Shown here one piece after another: positions 2,293-42,172 of a stretch of 43,869 nt of DNA (positions within the stretch are counted from its first letter, which is position 1; the number at the start of each line of letters is the position of its first letter). The notes beneath the pieces were generated by a model. The model was not told where the DNA came from. It searched no databases and saw only the letters and a program-made list of their open reading frames with translations. The stretch comes from a virus, in UHGV virus genome UHGV-0210493; one strand, 5' to 3'. Made by a program: the position numbers and the translations under genes.

Positions 2293-3006
2293 ATGGAAAG
2301 CATAGGTCAAAGAATTAGAAATTTGCGAGAAATGAAAAATATGACACAAACAGAATTATCTCAATCTTTAGGAATGAAAACTTACACAACTGTTTCAAAG
2401 TGGGAAAGTGATGATAATTTCCCCAAAGGAAGAGACTTAAAGAAATTATCTGAATTATTCGGGGTTAGCTCTGATTATCTTTTAGGTCTTAATACAAATA
2501 AAAATGTTACTTCAATTGAAACAATCTACAATCAATTAGAAAAACCAAGACAAACAAAAGTCTACAACTTTGCTGAACAGCAACTTGAAGAACAAAACAG
2601 TAAAGTGGTTCAATTCCCTGTTCAAAATAACCATGAAGAGGTGCAAGCTTACCTATCAGCTGGTACTGGTATTTTAAACTATTATGAAGCTGATAAAGAT
2701 ATAGCGGAAGTTCCTGCAGATGCACCAGAACATGATTGGATATTTAAAATTGTCGGCGATTCTATGAAGCCGTTGTTTGATACTGGTGATATCGTGTATG
2801 TGGATGAGTTCAAACAAGGCATAGATACTATACAAAACGGTAGAATTTATGTAGTTGAGGTTGACGGAGAAGCTTATATAAAGAAAGTCTATGTATACGA
2901 AGAAACAAAAACGCTTAGATTGGTTTCCCTTAACAAAGATTATATGGATTTGCTATTTAGATTTGAGGATTCGGATATTAAGTTTATTGGTCGTGTCATA
3001 ATTTGA
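2293..3006 (+). CDS. cI/LexA-like prophage repressor (N-terminal HTH_XRE, C-terminal S24 peptidase)
   Basis: N-terminal QTELSQSLGMKTYTTVSKWE HTH; C-terminal GDSM...K S24 serine/lysine dyad motifs. Confidence 0.85.
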   Translation: MESIGQRIRNLREMKNMTQTELSQSLGMKTYTTVSKWESDDNFPKGRDLKKLSELFGVSSDYLLGLNTNKNVTSIETIYNQLEKPRQTKVYNFAEQQLEEQNSKVVQFPVQNNHEEVQAYLSAGTGILNYYEADKDIAEVPADAPEHDWIFKIVGDSMKPLFDTGDIVYVDEFKQGIDTIQNGRIYVVEVDGEAYIKKVYVYEETKTLRLVSLNKDYMDLLFRFEDSDIKFIGRVII

Positions 3007-3655: not shown

Positions 3656-5056
3656 ATGAAAAAAGCGGGCTTATATATTCGAGTTTCCACTCCTCAACAA
3701 GAAAAAGAAGGCTACTCAATCGAAGCGCAAACGGAAAAACTCAACGCTTACGCAATAGCAAAAGATTATAAAGTGTTCAAGACCTATACAGATGCAGCCT
3801 TTTCTGGCGCTAAACTTGAACGGCCGGCGCTTAATGAAATGATCGAAGATATCGAAAACAATAAAATAGATGTCGTCATCGTTTACAAGCTTGACCGACT
3901 TTCTCGTAGCCAAAAGAACACTATGTATTTGATCGAAGATGTGTTTCTCAAAAATAATGTTGATTTCATCAGCATGCAAGAAAGTTTTGATACTACCACC
4001 TCTTTCGGTCGTGCAATGATCGGAATTCTTTCAGTTTTCGCCCAATTGGAGCGTGATAACATTACAGAACGCATGTCAATGGGGAAACTTGAACGTGTGA
4101 AACGTGGCTATTACATGGGTGGCGGTAATGTTCCATTTGGATATGAGTACAATCAAATTACAGGCGAATTAGAAATACAAGAAACACAAGCATTAGCTGT
4201 TAAGCGAATGTTTGAACTTTTTTTAAACGGACAAGCGATAAATAAGATTGTTTCTACATTGAAAAAAGAATTCCCTGTTTTTGAAGATAGCTTCATGGAC
4301 TCTACCGTCAGAAGAAGGCTTCAATCTCATTATTATTGCGGGAAACAGAAATATCAAAACAAAATATACGATGCTAAACACGAACCTATCGTTTCTACAA
4401 AAGACTTCAACAAAGCGCAGCGTTTAATTAGCAATAGACCTCACAGCAATGCGTTTAACCACAGTTATTTATTTTCGGGGCTCATTATATGCCACAAGTG
4501 CGGAAAGCCTTACAATGGATATGAGAGCGTTAGAACCGCCAACGGGAAAAAATATAAACATAAGTATTATCGTTGCTCGTGCAGGACTTACAAGCATAAG
4601 CAAAAATACGGTTGGGCTTGTTCAGGTAAATCTTATCGATGCGATTTTTTGGACGCAGCAATTATGAGTGAAATAAAAAAAAGAGCAGAAAATTCTAAGT
4701 TTGCATTAAAAGAAGATAATAACGAAGTAGATAATAAACCTATCATTAGAGAAATCGCCCGACTTAACGCTCAGCAATCAAAGCTATTAGATTTGTATCT
4801 ATCAGATAAAATATCCACAAATATCTTAGATAATAAAACCGATGAGCTTAAAGAGAAAATAGAAAAATTAGAATTACAGTTGAATCAGACGGTGAGTAAA
4901 AAAGATAAAGAAGAGTTTGAAAAATCATTAGAAGAGTTAGTTGATAAATTTGAAGAATTGGATTTTTCTACCAGACGGAGCTTGATAGAAAATATTATTG
5001 AGAAGATCGAGGTTGTTGACGATGAAATTACTATATACTTTTATGTGACCATTTAA
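3656..5056 (+). CDS. int: large serine recombinase (phage integrase)
   Basis: N-terminal resolvase catalytic domain (GLYIRVSTPQQ, active-site Ser), recombinase domain, Cys-rich zinc ribbon (CHKCG...CSC...C), C-terminal coiled coil. Confidence 0.9.
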   Translation: MKKAGLYIRVSTPQQEKEGYSIEAQTEKLNAYAIAKDYKVFKTYTDAAFSGAKLERPALNEMIEDIENNKIDVVIVYKLDRLSRSQKNTMYLIEDVFLKNNVDFISMQESFDTTTSFGRAMIGILSVFAQLERDNITERMSMGKLERVKRGYYMGGGNVPFGYEYNQITGELEIQETQALAVKRMFELFLNGQAINKIVSTLKKEFPVFEDSFMDSTVRRRLQSHYYCGKQKYQNKIYDAKHEPIVSTKDFNKAQRLISNRPHSNAFNHSYLFSGLIICHKCGKPYNGYESVRTANGKKYKHKYYRCSCRTYKHKQKYGWACSGKSYRCDFLDAAIMSEIKKRAENSKFALKEDNNEVDNKPIIREIARLNAQQSKLLDLYLSDKISTNILDNKTDELKEKIEKLELQLNQTVSKKDKEEFEKSLEELVDKFEELDFSTRRSLIENIIEKIEVVDDEITIYFYVTI

Positions 5057-5560: not shown

Positions 5561-5586
5561 TTACCACGGAAGCTTGTTGTTGTTCA
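5561..5586. repeat. 26-bp direct repeat copy 2 (encodes the endolysin C-terminus ...NNNKLPW*)
   Basis: Exact match to 5129..5154. Confidence 0.85.
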
Positions 5587-6481
5587 ATGCTACTTGCAAT
5601 GATTTGACCATGTTAGAAACAGGGCTGATAACTCCATCAACCGTTGTCTTCAAGGCTCGTTGCATAGCTTTAATCATTTCTGTACCGCACAACCCATCGA
5701 TCGCACCTTTGTATAAACCTTTCGCTTTCAACCTTTTCTGCCATTTACGAATCAACGTTGATCCTTTTAGCGTATTATCGAATTGCGCCGCATAAAGGTT
5801 CTTGTTGCACGCCTGCCGGTATTGGTGACTGATTTCATCATCTGGCGTAATCCCCTCATATTTCATTGCTTTATTGGCAGTGCTTGGTCCAAACATGCCG
5901 TCTTCTTGGATTTTATTGGTATTTGGTTTTACAGAAGGTGTACTAGGTTTGACTGTTGAATTTGATGATCCAGAATTATTGTTTGATGTGCTGTCTCCGT
6001 TGTAATATTTTTTGATTTGATCCACGAAATATTGTTTGATAGCTGCTACACCTTTTCCATGCAAATCCCACGCTCTGTGAGGACACGATGTAGAACTCAA
6101 CTCACGATGTAACGGAAACACGGCTGAAGCGGGATTCAAACCGTATTTTTTACATAACTCGGCAGCTAACTTAAATGCTTTTTGCTCATTTGCAAGATAC
6201 GTGGATTCATTCCCCATGGATTGACATACTTCAATCCCCAAGTAATTAGCATTGCCTTTGCTGTTACCTGTATGCCAAGCCTTGTTGCTATCCTTCTCAG
6301 CTTGGTATGTTCCATCGCTAGCAACATAGTAATGAGCAAATCCTAAAGAAGGAGTATGGCTTTCTAGCCAGTTTTTATAAAATGCAGCAGTCGCACCTTG
6401 GCTTCCGGCATCATTATGCAAAACGATTGCTGTCGGGTTTGATCCACGAGCACCCGCAATTCCTGAATAACTTACTACCAT
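5561..6481 (-). CDS. endolysin: N-acetylmuramoyl-L-alanine amidase (Amidase_2/PGRP) with C-terminal peptidoglycan-binding domain
   Basis: Amidase_2-like catalytic region (HNDAGS..., CPHRAW); C-terminal PG_binding_1-like repeat (GLYKGAIDGLCGTEMIKA). Confidence 0.85.
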   Translation of the reverse strand: MVVSYSGIAGARGSNPTAIVLHNDAGSQGATAAFYKNWLESHTPSLGFAHYYVASDGTYQAEKDSNKAWHTGNSKGNANYLGIEVCQSMGNESTYLANEQKAFKLAAELCKKYGLNPASAVFPLHRELSSTSCPHRAWDLHGKGVAAIKQYFVDQIKKYYNGDSTSNNNSGSSNSTVKPSTPSVKPNTNKIQEDGMFGPSTANKAMKYEGITPDDEISHQYRQACNKNLYAAQFDNTLKGSTLIRKWQKRLKAKGLYKGAIDGLCGTEMIKAMQRALKTTVDGVISPVSNMVKSLQVALNNNKLPW

Positions 6482-21622: not shown

Positions 21623-22630
21623 CTACCCTTCTGCTAATACAGTTGCTTGGAACACGTTGTCCGCTTCAGGGAAGCTAGGAAGTGCAGTACCAGCTGCTTT
21701 TGTCCATGTTCCAACAGGGTCAAGATTTGATTCATAAACCATTGCAAAAATGTTTCCAACTTGATAATCATTAGTACCACCAGATAATAGCCGAGATTCT
21801 TCTGGCGTTACACCGAAAATAGATTCGCCCGGATTTTCATCACCGAACATGACAAGTTTATTTTCTGGGAAGTAGCGCTCTTTGACCAACACGCCTTGAG
21901 CATTTTCTTTATAGTACTTAGCATCGTATGTTGCGATTACTGGCAAACCAAATTGTTGTAACAACTGATTTAATGTTCCAGCTGTTGGCAGCAATCCAGC
22001 ATCTTTGAAGTAAGCTTTGATACCAGCATTTTGCAAAATAGCATTACGCACTTTAGTCGAAGTTAAGATCCGAGTTGGTGTAGTATCTAGCGTACCTGCC
22101 CATGTAGTTAATAATCCGATAACATCGGTAGAAGAAGCAGCGAAATCAACGGTAGCTTTGTGTTCTGCCGGAACACCATAATCAACAACTAGATCCAATC
22201 CGTTTTCATCTAATGTTACGGTTCCGTTTGCCAATACTTCCATACGCATTTTTTCAACACGTGCATTGACAGAAGAAACCATTGAAAATACATCGTTATA
22301 TACTTCATTTTCCAAAAATGCTTGTTCTTCAGCAGTACGAGGATTACGCAATGCAATCAAGTCTTTTTCTTTCAACTGAATTTTGCGTTTGATAAAAGCT
22401 AATTCTTGAGCGCTCCGAGAAGCCACACGAGATGCAATTTCTGCCTCAGTATCAAATGCATGTACGCTTGCGATCGTCGGAATACGAGTGCCTGCTTTTA
22501 AAATATCAAATTCAAGTCCTTGCACCTTTCGTGCTGGAAAAAGTGTTTCACCCAACAAAGCGGGAGCTTGACGATTGTTTACATAGTCTAAGACGTTACG
22601 TTGTGAAAATAATTCTGCGATATTTGCCAT
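21623..22630 (-). CDS. major capsid protein (lambda gpE-like)
   Basis: 335 aa; preceded by a decoration-like gene and a scaffold gene. Confidence 0.75.
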   Translation of the reverse strand: MANIAELFSQRNVLDYVNNRQAPALLGETLFPARKVQGLEFDILKAGTRIPTIASVHAFDTEAEIASRVASRSAQELAFIKRKIQLKEKDLIALRNPRTAEEQAFLENEVYNDVFSMVSSVNARVEKMRMEVLANGTVTLDENGLDLVVDYGVPAEHKATVDFAASSTDVIGLLTTWAGTLDTTPTRILTSTKVRNAILQNAGIKAYFKDAGLLPTAGTLNQLLQQFGLPVIATYDAKYYKENAQGVLVKERYFPENKLVMFGDENPGESIFGVTPEESRLLSGGTNDYQVGNIFAMVYESNLDPVGTWTKAAGTALPSFPEADNVFQATVLAEG

Positions 22631-25930: not shown

Positions 25931-26182
25931 CTAAGAATTAGACATAGCTAAGGTCAGTTGAAAGGCTTGCTCTTCTGAGAATCCCTGTTCAATCAACTTA
26001 TCCATTAAAACTTTCAATGCAGTTGCTGTTAGTCCGTAAATGCCATCTAGATATTCCTGAAGCTTCTCAGCCGTTTCTGCAATGTCGCCTGTATTCATAT
26101 CGTCAATAGCTTCAAGTACTTGCTTCATCATCTTTTTGTTCATCTTCTTCAACCTCCGTATCAGTTTCTTTGTCACTGTCAA
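25931..26182 (-). CDS. hypothetical protein
   Basis: ORF track; overlaps the portal 3' end. Confidence 0.4.
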   Translation of the reverse strand: MTVTKKLIRRLKKMNKKMMKQVLEAIDDMNTGDIAETAEKLQEYLDGIYGLTATALKVLMDKLIEQGFSEEQAFQLTLAMSNS

Positions 26183-27731
26183 ACACGCCAGAACCAGATT
26201 GTTTCTTCAATCGCTTCAACTCTTCTTCAAACGGAACGCCAGTTAATCGTTCAGCCATTTCACACAATGTTTGATCTGATACGATGCCGACCATTCCAGC
26301 GATTACGCTCATGATTTCTTCGTCTGATTGCGGCACATTCGGCGTAAATTGAATTTGTATCTCGTTTACTTTGTTGTATAGCTGCTCTTGTTGCTTTTCA
26401 TCCGAAACAAAAAAGGCTTTGACTGTATCAATCAAGCCTTGTGGTTTATTCAATTCATCTTTGATGCTCCAAGAGTGTGTAAGCAACCGCAGACGGCGCA
26501 TAATGGCTTTCTTGACCATGCGTTCCTTGTTCTTACGATCGTTGTCTGAACCCCATCCTTTGAAACGGAATCCGATACCTGACTGGTTGGACCCGATGTT
26601 CTCGTCAGTAAAATCAATAAGAGATGTGAAGCGTAAGATATCAGCAACTGTCCGGCTGTCGTTAGCTTCCATTCCTGCAACGTCATACTCTTTTTTTAAA
26701 TAGAAAGCGTCTGGTTCGGAACCAGCTATGCTACCTTCATAAATCTTCTTGTCGCCTAATACAAGCGTTCTAGCTTGCATCATAGCTTGAAGCACTTCCA
26801 TTGGACTATTCTTGCCTGTTGGATCAACAGCGGTGTCAGGATTCCCTTTAATCACCAAGTAGGCTTCTGATGAATCTTGTTGGAAATTCGCCATTTCCGA
26901 GCGTGAAAGGTCGTATGCATCAATGGAATCCATTACATGCTCAAAATCACTTGTGCGCTCTTCGTTGTTTGTCCATTCATTGATCTGCACAGTGTCAAAA
27001 TAGCTTTGAACTGCCCCGTTTTCATCCAGTGTGGCATTTTCCAAATCATCATCTTTAGCTGTGAAGTAATAGTTGTATCCACAGTTTGTGTATAACTCGA
27101 TCCTAGTGAATGACTTATCCAAAAATTTCTCAACGAAGTAATGTACGCCGCAAATCGAGTTTCTGTCTTTTGTGTTGTCGTAAATCACAAATGTTTGCTC
27201 CGCATCAAACTTAGCTATTGTTTCTTTGCCGTATTCGTCACGTCCAACCCATTCATAAGCACGACCTAAGCCAAAGGCATCTCGGCTCATCAACTGATTA
27301 TGGTAGTCCTCGTTAGATTCACTAGCAAACCGATTAATACGTTCGACAATAACCTTATCGCCGTTATAACTAATCGGATTACCTAACAAGACACCTTGTT
27401 TAAACGACACAATAAAGTTAGCGAAATCGCTCGCTATGCGGTTGTCTGCTCTGCCATCTGGCTTGTTTGGACGCCGCTTAATGTTATTGTCTGCATTCAG
27501 ATATCGCTTTAGCTCTTTTAATCTAGGTACTTGTCTTTCACGATGATGCTTGATAAAGCCAACAATCATTTTCCACATATCTTCATGCTTGAAGTCAATA
27601 AACTCGCTGACCTCTCCTGTCTGCTGATCTAACATGTCGATTTTCGGCAACTGACTAACTGGTACCTTATAGACAAGGTTAGCTTCTTCATCAAATCGCT
27701 TTTTACCTAGAAGCTGAATATTCTGTTCCAC
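26112..27731 (-). CDS. portal protein (SPP1 gp6-like)
   Basis: 539 aa directly downstream of TerL. Confidence 0.85.
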   Translation of the reverse strand: MEQNIQLLGKKRFDEEANLVYKVPVSQLPKIDMLDQQTGEVSEFIDFKHEDMWKMIVGFIKHHRERQVPRLKELKRYLNADNNIKRRPNKPDGRADNRIASDFANFIVSFKQGVLLGNPISYNGDKVIVERINRFASESNEDYHNQLMSRDAFGLGRAYEWVGRDEYGKETIAKFDAEQTFVIYDNTKDRNSICGVHYFVEKFLDKSFTRIELYTNCGYNYYFTAKDDDLENATLDENGAVQSYFDTVQINEWTNNEERTSDFEHVMDSIDAYDLSRSEMANFQQDSSEAYLVIKGNPDTAVDPTGKNSPMEVLQAMMQARTLVLGDKKIYEGSIAGSEPDAFYLKKEYDVAGMEANDSRTVADILRFTSLIDFTDENIGSNQSGIGFRFKGWGSDNDRKNKERMVKKAIMRRLRLLTHSWSIKDELNKPQGLIDTVKAFFVSDEKQQEQLYNKVNEIQIQFTPNVPQSDEEIMSVIAGMVGIVSDQTLCEMAERLTGVPFEEELKRLKKQSGSGVFDSDKETDTEVEEDEQKDDEAST

Positions 27732-27741
27732 TGTATCACCT

Positions 27742-29154
27742 CTACAATCCTAGTTTTTTGAATGTGTCGATCGTCTTCATGACATCTATTTTTTCTGTTG
27801 TGTTCATGCTCATCGTTTCGGCGATGCCTGTTGTAGCATCTGGAGCATCGTCATGTTTGTTCTTTCCTTCTCGCTGGTATGTAGTCATTGCCTTGTAGTA
27901 ATCAGGAAACCTTGTTCTCCAATCACTCGGCATCCGTACATATTGTTCAACCCAATGGCTGTTGGAATAGATTCTCGCTTCTTTATTGGCACTTTGAAAG
28001 AAATCGGATATTGCAGCTGCACATTTCCCTTTTACTTTCTCTCTTACGGAACGAGCAAAAGACCGACCGCCGTTGTTGCGCTCGATACGTGATGTATTCA
28101 CTTTGAAGTTAATCAATTGATTTGCAACTGCGCTCTCCGTGTATTCCATTGGCTGTTGCGTATAGATGACATCTAAAACGTCCTGATAGCCATCTAGCGT
28201 TTCTCCCCAAACAATCGAACAAAGGTAGTCCTTACCAGTATCGGCAGTATCGCAATAATGCCAAATCTTCTTATAGTTAGATCTATTGCTATAAGTCTTG
28301 AACTCTCCGTACAATCTCCCTTTAATATCGATAGGCTCTTGTTGGTAGTTTGCGCTAGCGATGTCGGCACCCATTGTTTTAACTTTACGCTGGTAATCCT
28401 CAAAAGAAAGGACATCTTCACAAAGCATCCGACCGTTCTTTTCATCATATGCTTGAAAGTTAATGTGCTTAACCTTATATCCACTAAGTGGTAGTTCCTT
28501 CAATGCTCTACCTGCCAAATCATTGCTATGCCATCTAGTCATGTTGATAATAATCTTACCGTTACTCTCAAGACGGGATAGCATAGTATTTACAAACCAT
28601 TCCCAATGTTTATCCAAAACTGCAGCGTTGTTTGCTTCATCTGCATTCTTGATTACGTCATCAATGATGATGATATCTGCACCAAAACCAGTAGCTGTAC
28701 CAGTAGGCGATGTAGCCAGGTAGTTATTATAGCCATCTTCCAAACTCCAAAGATTCATTGCGCCATCGCCATATTTGATTTTTGCGTCGAATATATCGGC
28801 GTACACTATCATATCTTTGTCGGCTTTTATCTCTTGGATCGTGTTCCTCACATTCTTGGAAAATACAGTTGATAGAGTCTCATTATACGAACCAGTCATA
28901 ATCTTTTTTGTATGATCGTTACCTAGCACCCATTCAACAAATCGACCAAGCGTCAAAGATTTTCCGTGTCTGGGAGGCATATTAAGCACAAGCACGTCAT
29001 GTTCATTATCATCAAGAAACGACTGGAACTCTCCGCAAACAGAAATGAGGTACTCTCTATCGGCTTTATAGAACGCAGGCATAATCAAATGGCAATAATC
29101 GAAAAAATATCTCTTGGCCAATTCTATCTTGGCACCTAATGCAATTTTATCCAT
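27742..29154 (-). CDS. terL: terminase large subunit
   Basis: Walker A-like GKS region; C-terminal nuclease-like acidic residues; start at ATG MDKIAL (track's longer start is TTG). Confidence 0.85.
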   Translation of the reverse strand: MDKIALGAKIELAKRYFFDYCHLIMPAFYKADREYLISVCGEFQSFLDDNEHDVLVLNMPPRHGKSLTLGRFVEWVLGNDHTKKIMTGSYNETLSTVFSKNVRNTIQEIKADKDMIVYADIFDAKIKYGDGAMNLWSLEDGYNNYLATSPTGTATGFGADIIIIDDVIKNADEANNAAVLDKHWEWFVNTMLSRLESNGKIIINMTRWHSNDLAGRALKELPLSGYKVKHINFQAYDEKNGRMLCEDVLSFEDYQRKVKTMGADIASANYQQEPIDIKGRLYGEFKTYSNRSNYKKIWHYCDTADTGKDYLCSIVWGETLDGYQDVLDVIYTQQPMEYTESAVANQLINFKVNTSRIERNNGGRSFARSVREKVKGKCAAAISDFFQSANKEARIYSNSHWVEQYVRMPSDWRTRFPDYYKAMTTYQREGKNKHDDAPDATTGIAETMSMNTTEKIDVMKTIDTFKKLGL

Positions 29155-29608
29155 CCCGACTCGCCAACTTCCGCAATTCCTCTTCGGAAAGATTAGCAAA
29201 AGGATTGCTTACCGTCATGTTGCCAGATACCTCGGTTTCTTTTTTATCACGCCATTCATCTGGCTTGCGATTTTTCAACCAGAATATTTGAGCAGTAGTA
29301 TCAGGCGCTTGCTGTTTAGTGACAAATTTTGTTACTCTCATGCCATCTTCGGTCAGCTCTTGGGTAGTTTCTTTGAATTCGTATCCTAATGCTCGTTTAA
29401 GCAATGCATTCTCAACTTGCCGATCAACTACTTCTTTTCCTCTTTTTAAGGACTCCGATAACACCGAGTATTTCTTTTTCCACTCATGAAGAGTTGACTC
29501 AGCAATATTCATGTTATGTGCTACTTGTTTATCGGTAAGGCCATCACGAGCCCAACCTTCGATTTTCAATAGCCCTTCTTCAGTTAGCCACTCTGTGTAT
29601 TTTGCCAT
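29147..29608 (-). CDS. terS: terminase small subunit
   Basis: N-terminal HTH (GLTDKQVAHNMNIAESTLHEW); overlaps the terL start. Confidence 0.7.
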   Translation of the reverse strand: MAKYTEWLTEEGLLKIEGWARDGLTDKQVAHNMNIAESTLHEWKKKYSVLSESLKRGKEVVDRQVENALLKRALGYEFKETTQELTEDGMRVTKFVTKQQAPDTTAQIFWLKNRKPDEWRDKKETEVSGNMTVSNPFANLSEEELRKLASRDG

Positions 29609-30258: not shown

Positions 30259-30422
30259 CCATGCCCAATGTATATAAGCCTATGCCGATCGATATACTCG
30301 TCACTAAACTGCTGATAACATTCAAGCAACGTGTGCTTTGGTTTCAACTCCGCTTGACGGATATTTTTATGATTTAGTATTCCTACTGATAGTTGGATGT
30401 AATAGTAATGCATATCAGTCAC
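30207..30422 (-). CDS. hypothetical protein
   Basis: ORF track. Confidence 0.4.
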   Translation of the reverse strand: MTDMHYYYIQLSVGILNHKNIRQAELKPKHTLLECYQQFSDEYIDRHRLIYIGHGWENDPHIAEKLRRYGM

Positions 30423-31654
30423 CCCAGCTCATAGATTACTTTCAGCTTGTCTGCTGAATACTCAAAGGCCTGTGTGCTCTTATAGTTCATTGTGTAACCA
30501 TTCTCCGACTCATACTGATCGTTAGGTTTTATTGTTCCTAACTGCCGATGAATAACTCCTTTAAGGTTTTGAGCTTCCATTGAGTGATAATGCCCTTGGT
30601 GAATCTCTAGCCAACTACTCTTGCTCCATACGTCTCGAAACTCGGTAGCGAAAAGCATAGGATAATCGCCTTTCTTGCCGAAGTGTCCATGAGTGAGCAT
30701 AATGCCTACATTTTCTAGCTGATATGCGATCCTTGGCAGGTTGTGTTTGTTTACCGTTACTTGTGGATAGAGTGTTTCTAAGTACATTAGGAACAAATAC
30801 TCAAAGTCACTGTGATTACCACTGGCAAATTCAATCCGCACCTCTGAGCTTTTTCTTAAAGATTCATCGATCAGCGTAATGAAGAATGTTTTAGCCAACT
30901 CAATTGCTTCGACCATATCCACATCTTCGAGTTGAGTACCTTTGATTGTTTGGCTTGCCTTCATAGCGTTTGAGTGAAAGATGTCACCCAACACCTCTAT
31001 GACGATTGTCTTATAGCCTTTATTTATGATTGCTAATACATCGGATAGATAGGTTTCAAACTTTCGTTCCGACAAAATAGGGAAATGCAAATCAGCCAAC
31101 GGTATGACTAGATTGCACTTCCCTTTGGTAATTGGTTGAATTGTAATCGGCTTAGTACTTTGCAGCAATTTCGTAGCCAACGTTTGAATGCTCTTTGTCG
31201 CCCTCGGCTTAACAACTATCTTTGATTGATAAAGCTGTATAAGTCCATCTACTTGGTTGTTCTGTTCCCAGATGTTGTTAGTTGCTTGGACCAGTTCCCA
31301 ATTTTCGGGATCGTATCCGTGTGCTTGTAATACATAATCAGGATTCTTTGACTGTTCTTCAGTCATACGTAACTTGATAAGATTAGTCTGAGTACCATCT
31401 GATTTAATTTCTGTAGACACTACATTCTTCTTAGCCTTATCTGTTTGCTTAACACGCATATTCTTTTCGCTCGGTGGCAACTTCAACCTAGCGCGCTTAC
31501 TTCTAACGCTTGGCCATGAAAACTCTTTGCCGAACTCCTCTGACAGCATAGGCGCTATCTCTATATTTGTTAGTCCTTCATTTGCCAATTCCGACAATCG
31601 TTTGACTTGCTGTTCCGTCCATTTAGTAATGTCTGCCACCTCGCTTTTCTGCAA
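30419..31654 (-). CDS. HTH-domain + calcineurin-like metallophosphoesterase fusion protein
   Basis: Motifs DLH, GDIFH, GNHSD, THGH, GHYH in the C-terminal half; N-terminal TerS/sigma-r4-like HTH; annotated start is TTG. Confidence 0.7.
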   Translation of the reverse strand: MQKSEVADITKWTEQQVKRLSELANEGLTNIEIAPMLSEEFGKEFSWPSVRSKRARLKLPPSEKNMRVKQTDKAKKNVVSTEIKSDGTQTNLIKLRMTEEQSKNPDYVLQAHGYDPENWELVQATNNIWEQNNQVDGLIQLYQSKIVVKPRATKSIQTLATKLLQSTKPITIQPITKGKCNLVIPLADLHFPILSERKFETYLSDVLAIINKGYKTIVIEVLGDIFHSNAMKASQTIKGTQLEDVDMVEAIELAKTFFITLIDESLRKSSEVRIEFASGNHSDFEYLFLMYLETLYPQVTVNKHNLPRIAYQLENVGIMLTHGHFGKKGDYPMLFATEFRDVWSKSSWLEIHQGHYHSMEAQNLKGVIHRQLGTIKPNDQYESENGYTMNYKSTQAFEYSADKLKVIYELG

Positions 31655-31681
31655 AATAAAAAGCCACTCGCAATGAGTGAC
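31653..31681 (-). terminator. rho-independent terminator (minus strand) downstream of the tRNA, abutting the phosphoesterase start
   Basis: GTCACTC-ATTGC-GAGTGGC hairpin followed by TTTTTATTTT on the minus strand. Confidence 0.5.
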
Positions 31682-31765
31682 TTCGATATGTACGTCCCCG
31701 CTTGGGACACATTGCTAAGAGGTGTGCGAGGTTCTATCAGTTTTTTGGGATTACTGTGAACCCTA

Positions 31766-31838
31766 TTGACGTGACCGGACTCGAACCGGCGACCTCTTGG
31801 CTATTCACCAAACGCTCTGGCCGCTGAGCTACACGCCA
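31766..31838 (-). tRNA. tRNA with atypical anticodon loop (nominal anticodon AAU with G33; assignment uncertain)
   Basis: Cloverleaf by hand: acceptor TGGCGTG/CACGTCA, D-arm GCTC-AGCGGCCA-GAGC, T-arm GCCGG-TTCGAGT-CCGGT, anticodon stem TTTGG/CCAAG with loop TGAATAG; no encoded CCA. Confidence 0.7.
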
Positions 31839-31942
31839 CGACTTATAAAGAATACAATTAGGGTGGTACGGATTATCAGTCCGATCATATTACGTCCGAC
31901 TTAACTAGTATGCGGAATCAACCTAATGTTTCTAATGCGTTA

Positions 31943-32034
31943 TGTCACTGGCAAGGATTTGCACCTTGCATGGCACCTAAGTCCCTAAAATCGGAATGCC
32001 TTTCTGAAGCGTCTACCTATTCCGCCACAGTGAC
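31943..32034 (-). ncRNA. type-II (Leu-like) tRNA-like element / degenerate tRNA
   Basis: Perfect 7-bp acceptor GTCACTG/CAGTGAC; U8 G9; D-arm GCG-GAATAGGTAGA-CGC almost identical to bacterial tRNA-Leu; T-arm-like GCAAGG-TGCAAAT-CCTTGC; no canonical anticodon arm found. Confidence 0.4.
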
Positions 32035-32152
32035 TATCGCCCACAGAATAATTTTTACGTATCAAAAGGAGGTTGAATGCCGTTGTGCTTGTGGGCGATA
32101 TCTGATAATACTAATTTACCACGTTTTTAGACCTCGAAAGTTTGAAAATCGT

Positions 32153-32566
32153 TTAAATATCAAGGCTTCTATCCAATTCCTCAAAGAATTTGTCTCTTAA
32201 AGTGAATGCTTTATTCCTACCGCACTTGATAACTAGATTGTCAACTAAACCTTGCATCGTATACTGAGGAAATCGTTTGATATACAACTCTCGAATGATC
32301 GTCTCAGTGTCACTGCCGCACTCATCGAGAAGCTCTTGTACAATCTGCTTATTGCGTTTCAAACGCCGAATCTGTTTATCCGTCTCGATGGTCCACAATG
32401 TACCGAACATCAAATCGCTGTCGCTTCTTGTTCCCTTGATATCCCCATTAACATCCTCTTCTCGATACGGAACCCGAATCTCTTCTTCAAGCTTTCTGAC
32501 GTACTTATCCGTATCTCGGTAATCTTTCAACACTGCCTTGACTCGTTCAACACGCCATTTCTCCAA
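32153..32566 (-). CDS. ArpU-family late transcriptional regulator
   Basis: 137 aa; sigma-like regulator typical upstream of packaging genes in Firmicutes phages. Confidence 0.7.
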   Translation of the reverse strand: MEKWRVERVKAVLKDYRDTDKYVRKLEEEIRVPYREEDVNGDIKGTRSDSDLMFGTLWTIETDKQIRRLKRNKQIVQELLDECGSDTETIIRELYIKRFPQYTMQGLVDNLVIKCGRNKAFTLRDKFFEELDRSLDI

Positions 32567-37950: not shown

Positions 37951-40278
37951 CTAATTAAACAAATTTCGAATTCCAATATTTTCGTAAGGCTGACTTTCCT
38001 CAATTAAATCTATACCTTCGTACATAATTCCTTGGTTAGTTTTCTTTTTGTTAAATTTGTTACTCATTTCTTTACCGAATTTCGTACTATTCATTTCGTA
38101 CTGACCATTTTCATTGGCCCAAGTTTTGTACGCTTGATAAAAATCTTTAGCTTTTACTCGCTTATTTATCCCTCTCTCACAACAATCATTGATAAATGCT
38201 GCAGTTACGTCCATTTCTTCTCGATATTCTTTTGAAGCATCCTCAACGATTTTTGGTCGTTTCAAACCTTCTCTCTGCCACATCAGACAACCTTCTACTA
38301 TCCAATTCAAAATTCCGACTGATTCACGCTTAAGTTTGTATTTAAGGTTCTTGTCTTTCTTGTGATCAGGAATCTGTATGGTAAAAGGGATTAAATTCAT
38401 TCTTCGCCATATACCGTCATCCGTACCTCGTATGATCGGTTTGTGGTTAGTTGCTAACCAAAGCTTGAATTCTGGTGTAAATTCAAATTCTTTCCCGTAT
38501 AAAAAGCGAGCAGTTACTTTGTCTCCGCCAGTCAACTGCTTGACCAAACCCTCATCCATTCTCACACCTTCATTGGGTTCGGATGATGTTACTAATCGAG
38601 CGCCTTTCAAACGTGCAATATCTGTATTAGCTCCACCATTTGCTTTTCTAACCATAATCGTGTCTGCTTGCATGTTTGTCGCATAGCTGCCCATGATATA
38701 TGAGATAGTATCTAGAAACACAGATTTACCATTGCTACCAGCGCCGAACAGCACGAACATACTCTGCTCTCTTGTGGACCCAGTGAGTGAGTAGCCAACT
38801 GCCTTTTGAACATATCTAATCAACTCTTGGTCGTTATCAAATATTTGATTTAAAAATTCAGTCCATTGCGGCGCATCGATTTTATCTGTATATTCAATAT
38901 TTGCTATTCGTGTAAACTTTTTGTCTATGTTGTGTTCGTGCAATACTCCGCTAATCAAATCTAAATATCCATTTTGTGTATTTAGAAGTGTTGTGTCGCT
39001 ATCAAATTCATCTGGTAAAACCGATACACGGTGCATGATTTGTTCTCTCATAGCTTTCTTTGCAGAATTTCCACGGGAACGCTTGATGTGTTTCCTAAAG
39101 GCTTCTTCAATTTTTTCTGGATCTTCACAGTCGGCAGGGATATAAACTTTCTCATTTTTCATCATGTCAACTGTGGTATCAATCATTTTTGATATTTCAC
39201 CTGTATCATCAATCTTCCAACTCTTGCCATCGTAGAAATAAAACTCTTTATTAATGTATGAGTATCTGACTAAGGTTCCATACACATCCATAAATCTTTC
39301 TGCATTCCCGGTGTCATCATAGGAGTAGAATTTGTCTTCTTTCTTTTCTTCAAACTCTTTAATGAAAATTCTGAAACCATGCGACTGGCTAGGCGTATAG
39401 GTATTTTCACATTCATGGATTGCTTTGTTTAATAAGTTTCCGCCGTATGTTGAATTTGGTGGTCTACGTTCGTCATACTTTTGTCTAAATAAAGACGAAT
39501 CTCTGAAAATGCTGTCCATTTTTTCAAAGTCTCTACCGGTCCAGAATGCTAACATGTTTGCAAAAGCAATATCTGCTTCGGATTGAGAGTCGTAAAAAGC
39601 TTCCCAGCCGCCTTCCATAAAAACCTTGAATTTTGCGCCCTGTTTGCTTTCGTATGCTTTTTGGACTATTTCTGATTCTGATAGGTCTATTTTCGATTCT
39701 GAGACGTTTTGATTGTTAAATCGGACAATCTTATCATCTCCAATATATCGGTTGTATAGCAGTTTTAGAGTGGTTTCTGATGGTTCAATGACTTGGTTAT
39801 ATTTGCGATCGACAGTATTGCCTGTCATAACGAAAAATCTACCCGAATCATACATTTCAACATTGCCTTTTCTACGCCTGTGACCAGGCAGCTTTCCTTT
39901 ACAGATAATGTGGATACCATTGCCAGATTGAGAATATTCAGCATAAGATTTAATCGATGTTACAAACTCGTACATCATATTTGTTTCAATATCGCCTTGT
40001 AAATATCGTTGAATTTCACCTTCGATATTATCAATGTCAATTCCGAAGTAAGGTTTTTTGAAATAAAAACCTAATCCATTACAGTTATATTTTTCTATTG
40101 CAGAGAGTGCGGTCTGATAATCAGACCACGTACTCTCATCATTTGATTTACCATTGTTTCCAGTGTGTGGATCGACTGGTATTTTGGTGTGTTTTTTTCT
40201 TTCTTCGTTCCATACCAATCGATATACACACCACTGTTTTTGCTGCTTTAGTTCTTCTGGAATGTGTTCATATGCCAC
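37951..40278 (-). CDS. bifunctional primase-polymerase / D5-type NTPase (P4-alpha-like replication protein)
   Basis: N-terminal prim-pol domain; central D5_N/primase-C region; Walker A LFGAGSNGKS; GTG start with AAGGGAG RBS. Confidence 0.85.
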   Translation of the reverse strand: MAYEHIPEELKQQKQWCVYRLVWNEERKKHTKIPVDPHTGNNGKSNDESTWSDYQTALSAIEKYNCNGLGFYFKKPYFGIDIDNIEGEIQRYLQGDIETNMMYEFVTSIKSYAEYSQSGNGIHIICKGKLPGHRRRKGNVEMYDSGRFFVMTGNTVDRKYNQVIEPSETTLKLLYNRYIGDDKIVRFNNQNVSESKIDLSESEIVQKAYESKQGAKFKVFMEGGWEAFYDSQSEADIAFANMLAFWTGRDFEKMDSIFRDSSLFRQKYDERRPPNSTYGGNLLNKAIHECENTYTPSQSHGFRIFIKEFEEKKEDKFYSYDDTGNAERFMDVYGTLVRYSYINKEFYFYDGKSWKIDDTGEISKMIDTTVDMMKNEKVYIPADCEDPEKIEEAFRKHIKRSRGNSAKKAMREQIMHRVSVLPDEFDSDTTLLNTQNGYLDLISGVLHEHNIDKKFTRIANIEYTDKIDAPQWTEFLNQIFDNDQELIRYVQKAVGYSLTGSTREQSMFVLFGAGSNGKSVFLDTISYIMGSYATNMQADTIMVRKANGGANTDIARLKGARLVTSSEPNEGVRMDEGLVKQLTGGDKVTARFLYGKEFEFTPEFKLWLATNHKPIIRGTDDGIWRRMNLIPFTIQIPDHKKDKNLKYKLKRESVGILNWIVEGCLMWQREGLKRPKIVEDASKEYREEMDVTAAFINDCCERGINKRVKAKDFYQAYKTWANENGQYEMNSTKFGKEMSNKFNKKKTNQGIMYEGIDLIEESQPYENIGIRNLFN

Positions 40279-40831: not shown

Positions 40832-42172
40832 TTATAGTAGGTTTAGTCTTTTGGCTTGAAAGAATGCCCAACCTTTTTTATAACCTCTAGCATCAGCCAT
40901 TTTGTATAAATCGCTGACACTCTCAGCTTCTTCTGGTTCCATTGCTGCATACTTTCCTGTATCTAGATTGATTTTTATTTCTTGTAGTTCCGCACTTTCG
41001 ATTGTTTCAAGGTTTGCAGAACGCTCTTCTTTCGGTATCTCATGCCCACAATAAGGACAAATATTTCCAACTTCACTTGCATAGGTGCCGAAGCAATTAG
41101 GGCATTCCTTGATAGGAATAACGTCCTCTTTCTTTCGGCTTTTTTTACTTGCCAAGCTCCATTGCCTTGGCATATCCGGCAAACCATGCTCGTTCACGTT
41201 CCCGACATGATCAATGATTGTAGATATTTTATTTGGCTTGTAGCGCATCCCTCTCATGGCTTGCTGGATGAATAGAGAGAGCGACTTGGTGGGCCTTAGC
41301 ATTATCACCGTTGAGCAATCTGGTACATCGAAGCCCTCTCCGATCAAATCAACATTTGTCAGAATTTGAATATCGTGATTACGAAACTTTTCAATAATCA
41401 AATCACGTTCCTGTTTATTCGTTTTCCCGTCAATATGTGCCGCTTGGTATCCAGCTTCAATAAATAAATCTCTTGTCTTTTCACTTGATTCAATACTGTG
41501 GCAATATACGATCGCTTGCTCACCTTCCGCTAGTTTCTTGTAGTGTTTGATAACGTCACCGTATATAGCTTTTTGTTCCAATGCTTTATCTATACTGCCT
41601 TTTGAGAATTCAGACATAGAATTCATTTTTAAAACTGAAGTATCGATCAACGCTGGTGCATAGTATTTAAATGGAGTTAGTCGTTTATTTTCAATCAACC
41701 ATTTAACTGATACTCCCTCTATCAACAAATCGTTGACATCTCCCAAACCGCTACCGTTTAATCTGACTGGTGTTGCGGTAAAGCCTATTCGTTGGACATC
41801 TGAATAATATTCATAGATTTTCTTATAACTACTTGCCAAGCTATGGTGATTTTCATCCGTTATGATCAGCTTAGGTTTCTTTATTTTTCCTAGCTTTCTC
41901 ACGATCGTTTGAACCATTCCGAAAACAACAAATCTCATATCCACGCCATGTGTTTCAAAAGTATTCCTTATTTGGTCAATTAGTTCTTTCCTATGAACCA
42001 AGAACAAAACGTGATTGCCTTTTAAAGTCGTCTTACGAGCGATCTCTGCAATCACTACACTTTTGCCCGAACCGCATGGCGAAACAATACAAGGAGCACG
42101 ATAGCCATTGATAAAAGACTCTCTAGCCCTCTTTATCAAATCTTCCTGATAGTCGTATAATTCAAAGGTCAA
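40832..42172 (-). CDS. SF2 DEAD/DEAH-box helicase with C-terminal zinc ribbon
   Basis: Walker A SPCGSGKS; DENHH (DExH); helicase C motifs; CPNC...CPYC. Confidence 0.8.
   Translation of the reverse strand: MTFELYDYQEDLIKRARESFINGYRAPCIVSPCGSGKSVVIAEIARKTTLKGNHVLFLVHRKELIDQIRNTFETHGVDMRFVVFGMVQTIVRKLGKIKKPKLIITDENHHSLASSYKKIYEYYSDVQRIGFTATPVRLNGSGLGDVNDLLIEGVSVKWLIENKRLTPFKYYAPALIDTSVLKMNSMSEFSKGSIDKALEQKAIYGDVIKHYKKLAEGEQAIVYCHSIESSEKTRDLFIEAGYQAAHIDGKTNKQERDLIIEKFRNHDIQILTNVDLIGEGFDVPDCSTVIMLRPTKSLSLFIQQAMRGMRYKPNKISTIIDHVGNVNEHGLPDMPRQWSLASKKSRKKEDVIPIKECPNCFGTYASEVGNICPYCGHEIPKEERSANLETIESAELQEIKINLDTGKYAAMEPEEAESVSDLYKMADARGYKKGWAFFQAKRLNLL

Follow-up and report, generated by a model that had tools for sequence, protein, structure and literature searches.

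A probable tRNA-Lys(UUU) derivative with a rewritten anticodon arm in the presumed late leader of a temperate Enterococcus phage

When phages carry tRNA genes, these tend to be interpreted as codon supplements or, in more recent work, as replacements for tRNAs cut by defence nucleases. Here we discuss a tRNA-like gene of 73 nucleotides (nt), which we call module B, in the virus genome UHGV-0210493. The whole stretch of 43,869 nucleotides that we analysed is referred to as the window; it is a complete, circularly permuted genome of a temperate Enterococcus siphophage. Module B sits in a gap of about 500 nt between the gene for an ArpU-type late transcriptional regulator and an open reading frame (ORF) of the phrog_704 family. 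It belongs to a known kind, phage tRNA or tRNA-like RNA. A family of tRNA-Lys(UUU) genes resides in the late-operon leader of temperate Enterococcus phages, and we believe, with a probability of roughly 0.55, that module B is a descendant of such a gene whose anticodon has been disabled. It would no longer decode, and its top half (acceptor, T-arm and D/T elbow) would be kept as a processing handle or a tRNA mimic.

Several described systems come close to this. In plant mitochondria, t-elements are tRNA-like acceptor/T-arm structures that direct the cuts of RNase P and RNase Z in longer transcripts. Module B resembles them in retaining acceptor, T-arm and elbow, in having a dispensable anticodon arm, and in being embedded in a longer structured transcript. 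Its junction between A73 and U74, with no CCA, also fits an RNase Z site. Unlike t-elements, module B is bacterial and viral, and an intrinsic terminator stands before the downstream mRNA. A second comparison is with phage tRNAs that counter host defence. Phage tRNA-Lys variants neutralise PARIS (PMC11464382), and phage tRNAs evade retron effectors and anticodon nucleases (PMC11555353, PMC10264068). Module B is like the tRNA-Lys genes that act against PARIS-type defence (T5 tRNA-Lys; PMC11464382, PMC10264068, PMC11555353) in being phage-borne, in having its changes concentrated in the anticodon arm, and in sharing body and acceptor with the canonical tRNA-Lys(UUU) genes of sister phages. However, the defence-linked tRNAs keep U33, a 7-nt loop and a working anticodon and can still decode, whereas the window copy has lost both U33 and UUU. 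They also come in arrays in large lytic phages, while module B is a single gene in a temperate late leader.

Other RNAs are tRNA-shaped, do not decode, are recognised by tRNA enzymes and are linked to RNA modules: the TMER viral tRNAs (vtRNAs) of MHV68, the mascRNA of MALAT1, the tRNA-like domain of transfer-messenger RNA (tmRNA), and the bacterial Y-RNA YrlA (PMC4201824). None of them has a sequence or Rfam match to module B. The window copy does have G3.U70, which in tmRNA is the pair for alanine identity, yet the family does not conserve it, and the termini of module B lie at the acceptor stem, unlike those of YrlA. Finally, GOLLD and ROOL are large non-coding RNAs of phages and prophages that are found near tRNA islands, and the GOLLD linker sometimes holds tRNAs (PMC12286853, PMC5737381). 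The locus of module B is like them in occurring in phages and prophages of Lactobacillales, in being a long structured non-coding region linked to tRNA or tRNA-like genes, and in having variable as well as conserved parts. Yet the Rfam models of GOLLD and ROOL do not match it, at gathering or permissive (E<=1-10) thresholds, in the window or in 30+ related loci, and tRNA (RF00005) is the only Rfam family matched in the leader locus. We did not find tRNA-like modules in an ArpU-terS leader described in the literature that we covered, beyond which other accounts may exist.

The only tRNA that ARAGORN calls in the window is a tRNA-Ile with the anticodon aat at position 34. RF00005 scores the same 73 nt at 52.3 bits (gathering score 29; E=1.6e-8 over the whole window) across model positions 1-71 of 71. 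A preliminary description of this DNA had folded a good cloverleaf by hand at positions 31766-31838, with a 7-base-pair (bp) acceptor that includes one G-U pair and with canonical D- and T-arms; its coordinates prove exact and all of these parts are present, on the minus strand, a point that it had left unstated. Read 5' to 3', the RNA begins UGGCGUG-UA-GCUC-AGCGGCCA-GAGC-G-UUUGG-UGAAUAG-CCAAG and continues after the anticodon arm with AGGUC-GCCGG-UUCGAGU-CCGGU-CACGUCA-A. The wobble pair is G3.U70, the D-arm has G18G19 and the T-loop is UUCGAGU, which together give the acceptor, D-arm and UUCRA T-loop of a canonical elongator tRNA.

The anticodon loop, U32-G33-A34-A35-U36-A37-G38, is a different matter. 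U33 is needed for the anticodon U-turn, and module B has G there. The nominal anticodon is AAU, and we know of no bacterial use of this anticodon or of a tRNA-Ile with A34. The minimum-free-energy fold pairs U32 with G38, leaving a stem of 6 bp and a loop of 5 nt, the same collapse that had been proposed from the hand fold. One could object that the register itself is an artefact of folding by hand. The covariance-model alignment says otherwise: the loop of a near-identical copy (UGGAUAG) aligns column by column to the consensus CUuauAA with G opposite U33. In 62 other distinct tRNAs from the fetched loci, position 33 is U in 61, C in one and G in none, and position 32 is always a pyrimidine. 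LysRS depends mainly on U35 and the other anticodon nucleotides. Now that U33 and UUU are lost, neither a normal anticodon loop nor recognition by LysRS is to be expected.

The argument for a lysine ancestry depends on the relatives of module B. To find them we used a custom covariance model, R1, built from copies of the window's variant (V1) and the orthologue in phage phiFL2A; MAFFT mis-registers the short variants. R1 scores the window copy at 101.8 bits, and it recovered orthologues in most syntenic loci and many more among contigs that carry module A, a tRNA-Leu-like scaffold to which we return below. We number the related loci that were compared with the window L002 and so on (L056 is phage IME197, L021 is Lactobacillus phage Lb and L002 is vB_Edu_21C1). 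The orthologues lie 165-660 nt downstream of module A and share the acceptor UGRCGUG/CACGUYA. A73 is found in 20 of 21 variants and an encoded CCA in none; U74 is found in all 21, a count that we give as an observation only. Canonical tRNA-Lys(UUU) orthologues with the loop CUUUUAA or UUUUUAA are present in L071/L116, L108, L072, L081/L091, L067/L073/L111, L133 and L147.

The window copy occupies the slot of this lineage, after the Leu-like module and before the leader terminator, and has its acceptor and A73, but where the lineage has YUUUUAA it has UGAAUAG. Compared with the canonical gene of L071/L116, 10 of the 17 anticodon-arm positions differ as against 8 of the 57 elsewhere (Fisher p=5e-4). 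Four of those eight are in the D-loop; no change is seen in the variable loop AGGUC or in the T-stem GCCGG/CCGGU. The arm of L071/L116 is CCUGA-CUUUUAA-UCAGG; the pairs of the window arm have been kept by double changes at 28:42 (C-G to U-A) and 31:39 (A-U to G-C). The two canonical Lys types differ from each other at 13 of 57 body positions and at only one of seven loop positions, as one would expect if both were working tRNAs. Slot, acceptor and body are shared and the loop is lost, so module B is a derivative of tRNA-Lys and not a functional tRNA-Lys.

We also looked at two other ancestries. There are hints of tRNA-Ile(GAU): the GAU in the loop of L020, an Ile-like arm in phage Lb, and a tRNA-Ile(UAU) with the same D- and T-arms in a Gemmataceae metagenome-assembled genome. 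The window loop UGAAUAG itself does not have GAU within a loop of the CUGAUAA type, and we gave this ancestry less weight after finding that canonical Lys(UUU) orthologues share acceptor and body with module B. It is possible that the rewritten arm was imported by recombination. An alanine identity (G3.U70 together with A73, as for AlaRS, a tmRNA-like RNA or a Fem/Bpp cell-wall tRNA) was rejected as it is not a feature of the family: pair 3:70 is G-C in 12 of 19 members, G.U in five and A-U in two.

The V1 form occurs in seven contigs with at least four different flanking cassettes, and four of its five stem substitutions keep pairing. The exact anticodon arm of the window is found in four IMG/VR contigs; close variants are L020, a metagenome contig with the loop UGGAUAG, and L019. 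The V1 form was not found in any sequenced phage isolate. L019 is NZ_JAVRBF010000076.1, assigned to 'Streptomyces sp. P17', with 34 kb at about 5x coverage and 39.7% GC; it carries the leader of the Enterococcus phages together with the G33 tRNA and is a low-GC phage contaminant within a Streptomyces assembly.

The preliminary description allowed for a specialised decoder. This would be a working tRNA-Ile(AAU or IAU), or some other tRNA, in which G33 is tolerated and which serves AUU decoding or recoding for late proteins. No part of the cloverleaf is missing: the anticodon stem has 5 bp, the loop nominally 7 nt, A37 is in place and the D- and T-arms are good. L020 reads GAU, the normal bacterial Ile anticodon, yet it also has G33. 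AUU is the commonest Ile codon of the phage (418 of 871), and codon usage is uninformative on AUU decoding. We nevertheless regard a decoder as very improbable. None of the 62 control tRNAs has G33, folding predicts a collapsed loop, an A34 tRNA-Ile is not known in bacteria, and the body is of the tRNA-Lys type and not that of tRNA-Ile. Position 34 is A or G among near-identical copies and the loop is not conserved among orthologues, which on the same acceptor carry UUU, UUC, GAU, AAU, CGA or no arm at all.

The anticodon loop is the part of the molecule that is conserved least. The loops found on the one acceptor are CUUUUAA, UUUUUAA, UUUUCAA, UUUUUUAA, UGAAUAG, UGGAUAG and GUCGAUA. Other members have an 8-nt loop, a deletion of 6 nt in the arm, or no arm, with lengths of 69, 64, 59 and 45 nt. 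A single slot therefore shows a tRNA-Lys(UUU) lineage that goes from canonical decoder to anticodon-disabled cloverleaf to a 45-nt minihelix of acceptor and T-arm, with the top half kept throughout. Among five cloverleaf-type orthologues the mean pairwise identity is 0.15 in the anticodon loop, 0.37 in the anticodon stem and 0.38 in the variable loop, as against 0.71 in the T-stem, 0.77 in the acceptor, 0.90 in the T-loop and 1.00 at positions 8-9 and 73. When 20 members (19 distinct) are aligned with regard to structure, standard pairs are formed by 93.8% of cells, compared with 80% when shuffled and about 45% with slid partners. Both partners have changed in 13 of 21 pairs; 500 shuffles never attained the observed values. 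About half of the rows have no anticodon helix.

This sample had been found with a model that requires acceptor and T-arm, and for that reason we ascertained the family again from its flanks only, with the leader hairpin GAGGGUAGCUCCCUC-AAGU and the trailer UAGGGUUYAYAGUWAUCCC as anchors. Acceptor and T-arm are intact in 13 of the 14 distinct intervals so obtained, and the fourteenth is mis-anchored with its module intact; a canonical anticodon arm is present in about four of the 14. At least four independent deletions took the anticodon arm and spared acceptor and T-arm, and disabled forms outnumber canonical ones by about 4:1 among distinct module B sequences. Repeated loss of the arm alone, together with this excess of disabled forms, suggests that the top half is retained for a reason other than decoding. 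In this family, then, acceptor and T-arm are retained independently of the anticodon arm, as in a handle, and both module A and module B lack a CCA after the discriminator, which is the hallmark of an RNase Z substrate.

The main rival to this reading is that module B is a plain pseudogene. A tRNA-Lys(UUU) would be eroding neutrally under relaxed selection, as might happen where the host has no nuclease that targets tRNA-Lys or where AAA codons are not limiting; it would do nothing, and the arm-less relatives would be later stages of the same decay. The forms do make a graded series, from canonical Lys through the point mutants of IME197, the 8-nt loop and the 6-nt deletion to the remnants of 69, 64, 59 and 45 nt. 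The preliminary description had likewise allowed for a decaying gene, and part of that idea survives: the anticodon arm of a former tRNA-Lys(UUU) has been disabled. However, acceptor, T-arm and elbow are kept across at least six independent structural variants, which uniform decay would not lead one to expect. Neutral erosion should not concentrate change in the anticodon arm, as in the comparison with L071/L116 and in IME197, where both changes are in the arm. Nor should it hold the V1 stem together with two double compensatory changes, or leave the acceptor and T-arm, about 42% of the gene, untouched by every one of the arm deletions and in nearly every flank-only interval. The 4:1 excess of disabled forms is unexpected for junk in phage genomes that are constrained in size, and the lack of CCA and the nucleotides U74 and A73 have been kept almost without exception. 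We consider a pseudogene unlikely on balance, although it is the alternative to be taken most seriously.

It is important to realize that several facts weigh against the reading that we prefer, and some of them are what a pseudogene would predict. Among V1 copies the flanking spacers are about as conserved as the tRNA, so the similarity of these copies to one another does not speak for constraint. Some V1 copies carry changes that would weaken the tRNA shape, namely G19 to U in L007 and a U6.U67 mismatch in the acceptor of L020. Module B is dispensable: it is absent from close relatives, among them the very close isolate phiEG37K, whose leader is only 223 nt long and has no tRNA-like module, and several IMG/VR phages. 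The covariation of the stems could in part be older than the loss of the arm and inherited from distinct functional tRNA-Lys ancestors. Independent lineages are few, about six. Lastly, the tRNA is separated from the late genes by an intrinsic terminator, and a role in maturing the late mRNA is not obvious.

A third possibility, with a decoy already named in the preliminary description, is that module B is a decoy or inhibitor of a host defence that targets tRNA. The ancestral tRNA-Lys(UUU) would have replaced or protected host tRNA-Lys cut by an anticodon nuclease, and the present RNA, through an uncleavable loop or by acting at its acceptor end, would titrate the nuclease or toxin late in infection. 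Late phage proteins trigger many abortive-infection systems, and the module B RNA would be co-expressed with them. G33 and A34 flank the position of a PrrC-type cut, and in several lineages it is the anticodon arm on which change is centred. A second sub-lineage (L125, L128, L130 and L136), with the loops UGUUAGA and UGUCAGA, has G33 as well. The locus is mosaic and cassette-like, as is typical of counter-defence loci, and the ancestor, tRNA-Lys(UUU), is a documented target of defence nucleases such as PARIS (PMC11464382), which makes a decoy somewhat more plausible. The arm-less members, however, cannot mimic an anticodon loop, and expression from a late leader would come late for counter-defence. 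We found no defence nuclease, cognate system, tRNA-repair gene or tRNA-modifying gene in the phage genome. The loop UGAAUAG, in addition, resembles no host anticodon loop known to us. Taking both sides together we think a decoy improbable.

How might a disabled tRNA-Lys be used? We propose that module B is transcribed within a late leader of about 450 nt, with no promoter of its own. RNase P would then cut at its 5' end and RNase Z between A73 and U74, and CCA would be added, to judge by the hallmarks in its sequence. In Bacillus and Streptococcus, precursors that lack CCA are cleaved by RNase Z directly behind the discriminator; they are also substrates of RNase P, which can act first where the leader is long (PMC1874595, PMC8549757). 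RNase P, RNase Z and the CCA-adding enzyme all recognise precisely the part that has been retained, and it is for this reason that we propose a tRNA-type excision. The comparative data support the view that the product does not decode: the U-turn nucleotide and the LysRS determinants are gone, the loop can collapse, and in orthologues the arm has been free to change or to be lost. The same data support the view that selection keeps the acceptor, T-arm and D/T elbow. What the top half would do is the least certain step. The simplest idea is that it serves as a tRNA-shaped handle, a processing and stability signal that punctuates the structured leader RNA. Alternatively, by mimicking a tRNA it may titrate a host factor whose targets are the acceptor ends or elbows of tRNAs. 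If its retention is functional, module B would be the counterpart in a bacterial virus of the tRNA-like handles and mimics of mitochondria, herpesviruses and long non-coding RNAs, and in a genetically tractable system, as phiFL2A, whose copy has a degenerate arm, and IME197 are in culture.

Module B-type elements are annotated in none of the public records that we examined, and tRNA finders either miss these forms or misassign them as Ile, Glu, Ser, 'Stop' or 'SeC'. Misleading isotypes and missing annotation will affect censuses of phage tRNAs and arguments from codon usage. IME197 is a good example. At 1652-1725 it has an unannotated gene with the loop UUUUCAA, which ARAGORN calls tRNA-Glu(UUC) and RF00005 scores at 58.8 bits. 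It differs from the canonical Lys gene of L108 by only two nucleotides, both in the anticodon arm (A31 to G and U36 to C), and its D-arm is not Glu-like, so the Glu call is probably misleading. A sub-lineage of five loci (L125, L128, L156, L136 and L130; for example L125 4686-4761) has a disrupted arm, for which the ARAGORN calls are 'tRNA-Stop(tta)' and 'tRNA-SeC(tca)'; it is almost certain that no real suppressor tRNA is involved. At L039 1411-1498, in the same slot, the call is 'tRNA-Ser(cga)', and this tRNA-derived RNA actually contains two tandem T-arm-like hairpins, GGCGGUUCGAUCCCGCU and GGCGGUUCGAUUCCGCC.

In Lactobacillus phage Lb the gap between regulator and terS holds three unannotated tRNA-like pieces, at 2295-2352, 2492-2549 and about 2620-2760. 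The first is a 58-nt tRNA-like RNA without an anticodon arm that scores 47 bits. The second is an Ile(GAU)-like unit of D-, anticodon and T-arms, with the arm CUUGA-CUGAUAA-UCAAG and no acceptor stem, and the third is a Leu-like scaffold with a large insert. With these pieces in the same slot, the phenomenon reaches beyond Enterococcus.

The interest of module B is mainly in the pattern of the family and in its hypervariable neighbour, module A, whose 5' motif is found in at least 120 IMG/VR contigs and which also occurs in large lytic Schiekviruses. Module A has a D-arm of class-II type, GCGGAAUAGGUAGACGC, and the T-arm CAAGG-UGCAAAU-CCUUG, and in place of the anticodon and variable arms it has an insert; the fold is cloverleaf-like. 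Neither ARAGORN nor Rfam calls it in the window. On a constant acceptor we count 25 different versions, whose inserts are 0-85 nt long and of at least 14 unrelated kinds. The types of D-loop and T-loop co-vary, and U74 is present in all 27 variants. The z-scores of the insert folds are negative in 12 of 14 cases and below -2 in only two, which is suggestive of structured inserts.

One may go further and see the late leader as an expression site for natural tRNA scaffolds. The top halves would be kept for maturation by RNase P and RNase Z and for stability, and the centres would be exchangeable payloads directed against tRNA-targeting defences. These payloads, the 0-85-nt inserts of the Leu-like modules and the rewritten arms of the Lys-derived ones, would be decoys, aptamers or inhibitors. 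The G33 hairpin can, for instance, be read as a pentaloop of the GNR(N)A type. The scheme would cover Enterococcus phages and apparently some Lactobacillus phages, with diversification by cassette exchange in an arms race. We offer it as a doubtful extension of the reading above.

Schiekviruses carry the same kind of scaffold. In Enterococcus phage vB_Edu_21C1 it lies at 1501-1636 with an insert of about 78 nt, 2 nt past the 3' end of the phage tmRNA and within the tRNA cluster of a virulent phage of 150 kb; it is unannotated. It is also matched in the Schiekviruses phiSHEF16, 113, ZJGS2, EFP01 and EfV12-phi1, again unannotated in the records examined. In L138 two canonical tRNA genes come after the Leu-like module, one for tRNA-Lys(UUU) and one for tRNA-Gln(UUG), and their acceptors are unrelated (10409-10481 and 10610-10682). 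Lys(UUU), Gln(UUG) and Glu(UUC) tRNAs carry xm5s2U34 and form a class that is targeted by several anticodon nucleases. A search within the phage for antisense targets of the inserts, arm, spacer and trailer gave only one exact complementarity, 13 nt between CAUUCCGAUUUUA of the module A insert and positions 11165-11177, in the mRNA of the tail gene 10073-12379. With E~0.02 in a small search this is borderline, and we treat it as chance.

The features of the locus and of the rest of the phage are collected in Table 1. The nearest isolate is the E. hirae phage EH-TP1, with about 82% identity across the structural genes.

Table 1. Features of the module B locus and of the window. Positions are those of the window.
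Feature	Position	Strand	Remarks
Module B, variant V1, tRNA-like gene	31766..31838	minus	73-nt cloverleaf, A73, U74, CCA not encoded
Rewritten anticodon arm UUUGG-UGAAUAG-CCAAG	31796..31812	minus	loop 31807..31801, G33 = 31806, nominal anticodon AAU 31805..31803
Module A, unannotated tRNA-Leu-like scaffold	31943..32034	minus	acceptor GUCACUG/CAGUGAC, A73, 40-nt insert (31969-32008)
Spacer S1, 104 nt	31839..31942	minus	between modules A and B
3' trailer motif UAGGGUUCACAGUAAUCCCA	31746..31765	minus	directly after A73
Trailer hairpin CCUCGC...GCGGGG	31696..31731	minus	conserved together with the tRNA in L004-L007
Intrinsic terminator of the whole leader	31653..31684	minus	10-bp stem and U-tract, directly before the first late gene
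5'-proximal leader hairpin	32036..32099	minus	10-bp stem AUCGCCCACA / UGUGGGCGAU, loop includes CCUCCUUUU
Putative -10 element TAGTATTAT of an ArpU-dependent late promoter	32105..32113	minus	proposed from sequence and analogy with phiFL2A; missed by the sigma-70 scan
ArpU-type late transcriptional regulator gene	32153..32566	minus	phrog_36, E=4e-15; upstream boundary of the locus
First late ORF, 411 amino acids (aa)	30419..31654	minus	phrog_704; downstream boundary, followed by terS and terL
Anti-repressor	1054-1803	minus	
CI-like repressor	2293-3006	plus	
Serine integrase	3656-5056	plus	
Endolysin	5561-6481	minus	
Major head protein	21623-22630	minus	
Portal	26112-27731	minus	
terL	27742-29199	minus	
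terS	29147-29608	minus	
Primase	37951-40278	minus	
Helicase	40832-42172	minus	

That this region is a leader is suggested by comparison with phiFL2A, for which binding of ArpU to three direct repeats of 7 nt, placed upstream of the late promoter, has been demonstrated (PMC3753634). In that phage TTGGCGG occurs three times directly after arpU and upstream of an equivalent tRNA-like region of about 750 nt. Reasoning by analogy, we read the region of module B as most likely the 5' leader, some 450 nt long, of the late transcript. Homologues of the ArpU-type gene in EG-TP1 and IME197 are annotated as transcriptional activator or ArpU family. A scan for promoters of the sigma-70 type on the strand of the tRNA found none for module B.

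The preliminary description had given the tRNA a terminator of its own. This we cannot support: the sole intrinsic terminator is 82 nt past the 3' end of the tRNA and is conserved in nearly all related loci irrespective of their cassettes, including those without module B. The TTG start of the 411-aa ORF, a mechanical call at 31654, overlaps the U-tract of this terminator (31619-31654 region, minus strand). The true start is probably the GTG at 31639, which is preceded by GAGG and conserved in relatives. Searches of Pfam and the PDB with the 411-aa protein gave no match.

In 25 IMG/VR phages whose regulator gene is 69-99% identical to that of the window, the intergenic region here varies from about 100 to 1085 nt. 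BLAST of the window leader against these loci shows common ends with variable cassettes between them, and two of the cassette types, modules A and B, are tRNA-shaped. On the 5' side the common end measures about 120 nt, is found in all related loci and includes the 5'-proximal hairpin; on the 3' side it consists of the terminator and the beginning of the late ORF. The CCUCCUUUU in the loop of that hairpin resembles an anti-Shine-Dalgarno sequence. Spacer S1 is conserved along with V1 in most copies, L019 and L020 included, and is absent in L005, where a cassette with an HNH endonuclease gene precedes the tRNA. The trailer motif is conserved as TAGGGTTYAYAGTWATCCC behind nearly all module B variants. 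The trailer hairpin scores 19.1 bits (gathering score 37; E=1.2) against the abiF RNA motif RF03085, which is not significant, and the resemblance is probably chance.

A gene placed between a regulator and the terminase could also be a DNA-level element, such as an attP core, a cos or pac site, or another signal for recombination or packaging. Temperate phages often integrate into tRNA genes, the locus is just upstream of terS, and the record of EG-TP1 begins 57 nt from module A. We give this idea almost no credence. The module is absent or highly variable among phages with the same packaging genes, and the compensatory changes in its pairs point to selection on RNA structure. An attP in the tRNA gene was rejected specifically: the cloverleaf is complete and not a 3' half, and there is no adjacent tyrosine integrase, the integrase being a serine recombinase about 27 kb away.

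Longer leaders contain further cassettes. In L030 (2307-2816), and with the same cassette in L005, there is an HNH_3 endonuclease ORF of 169 aa (Pfam E=5e-8) with its own terminator, inserted within the Leu-like module, which is truncated after GTCACTGTGGCGGAA. It looks like a free-standing homing endonuclease and may be a driver of the mosaicism of the leader. Extra conserved non-coding cassettes of about 200-390 nt are found in L030 (2900-3290), L024 (3290-3560), L042 (1210-1440) and L019 (470-660), one example being ...GUGUAGGUUGCUUUUUUYAGAUGUUAACUGCCUAGUUGCAG.... No Rfam family matched them, and they may be additional structured RNAs. Elsewhere in the window, between the lysis and tail genes and on the opposite strand, an Acyl_transf_3 gene (Pfam E=2e-15) lies at 9066-10031 on the plus strand; it is a candidate moron-type gene that might bring about lysogenic conversion through acylation of surface polysaccharide.

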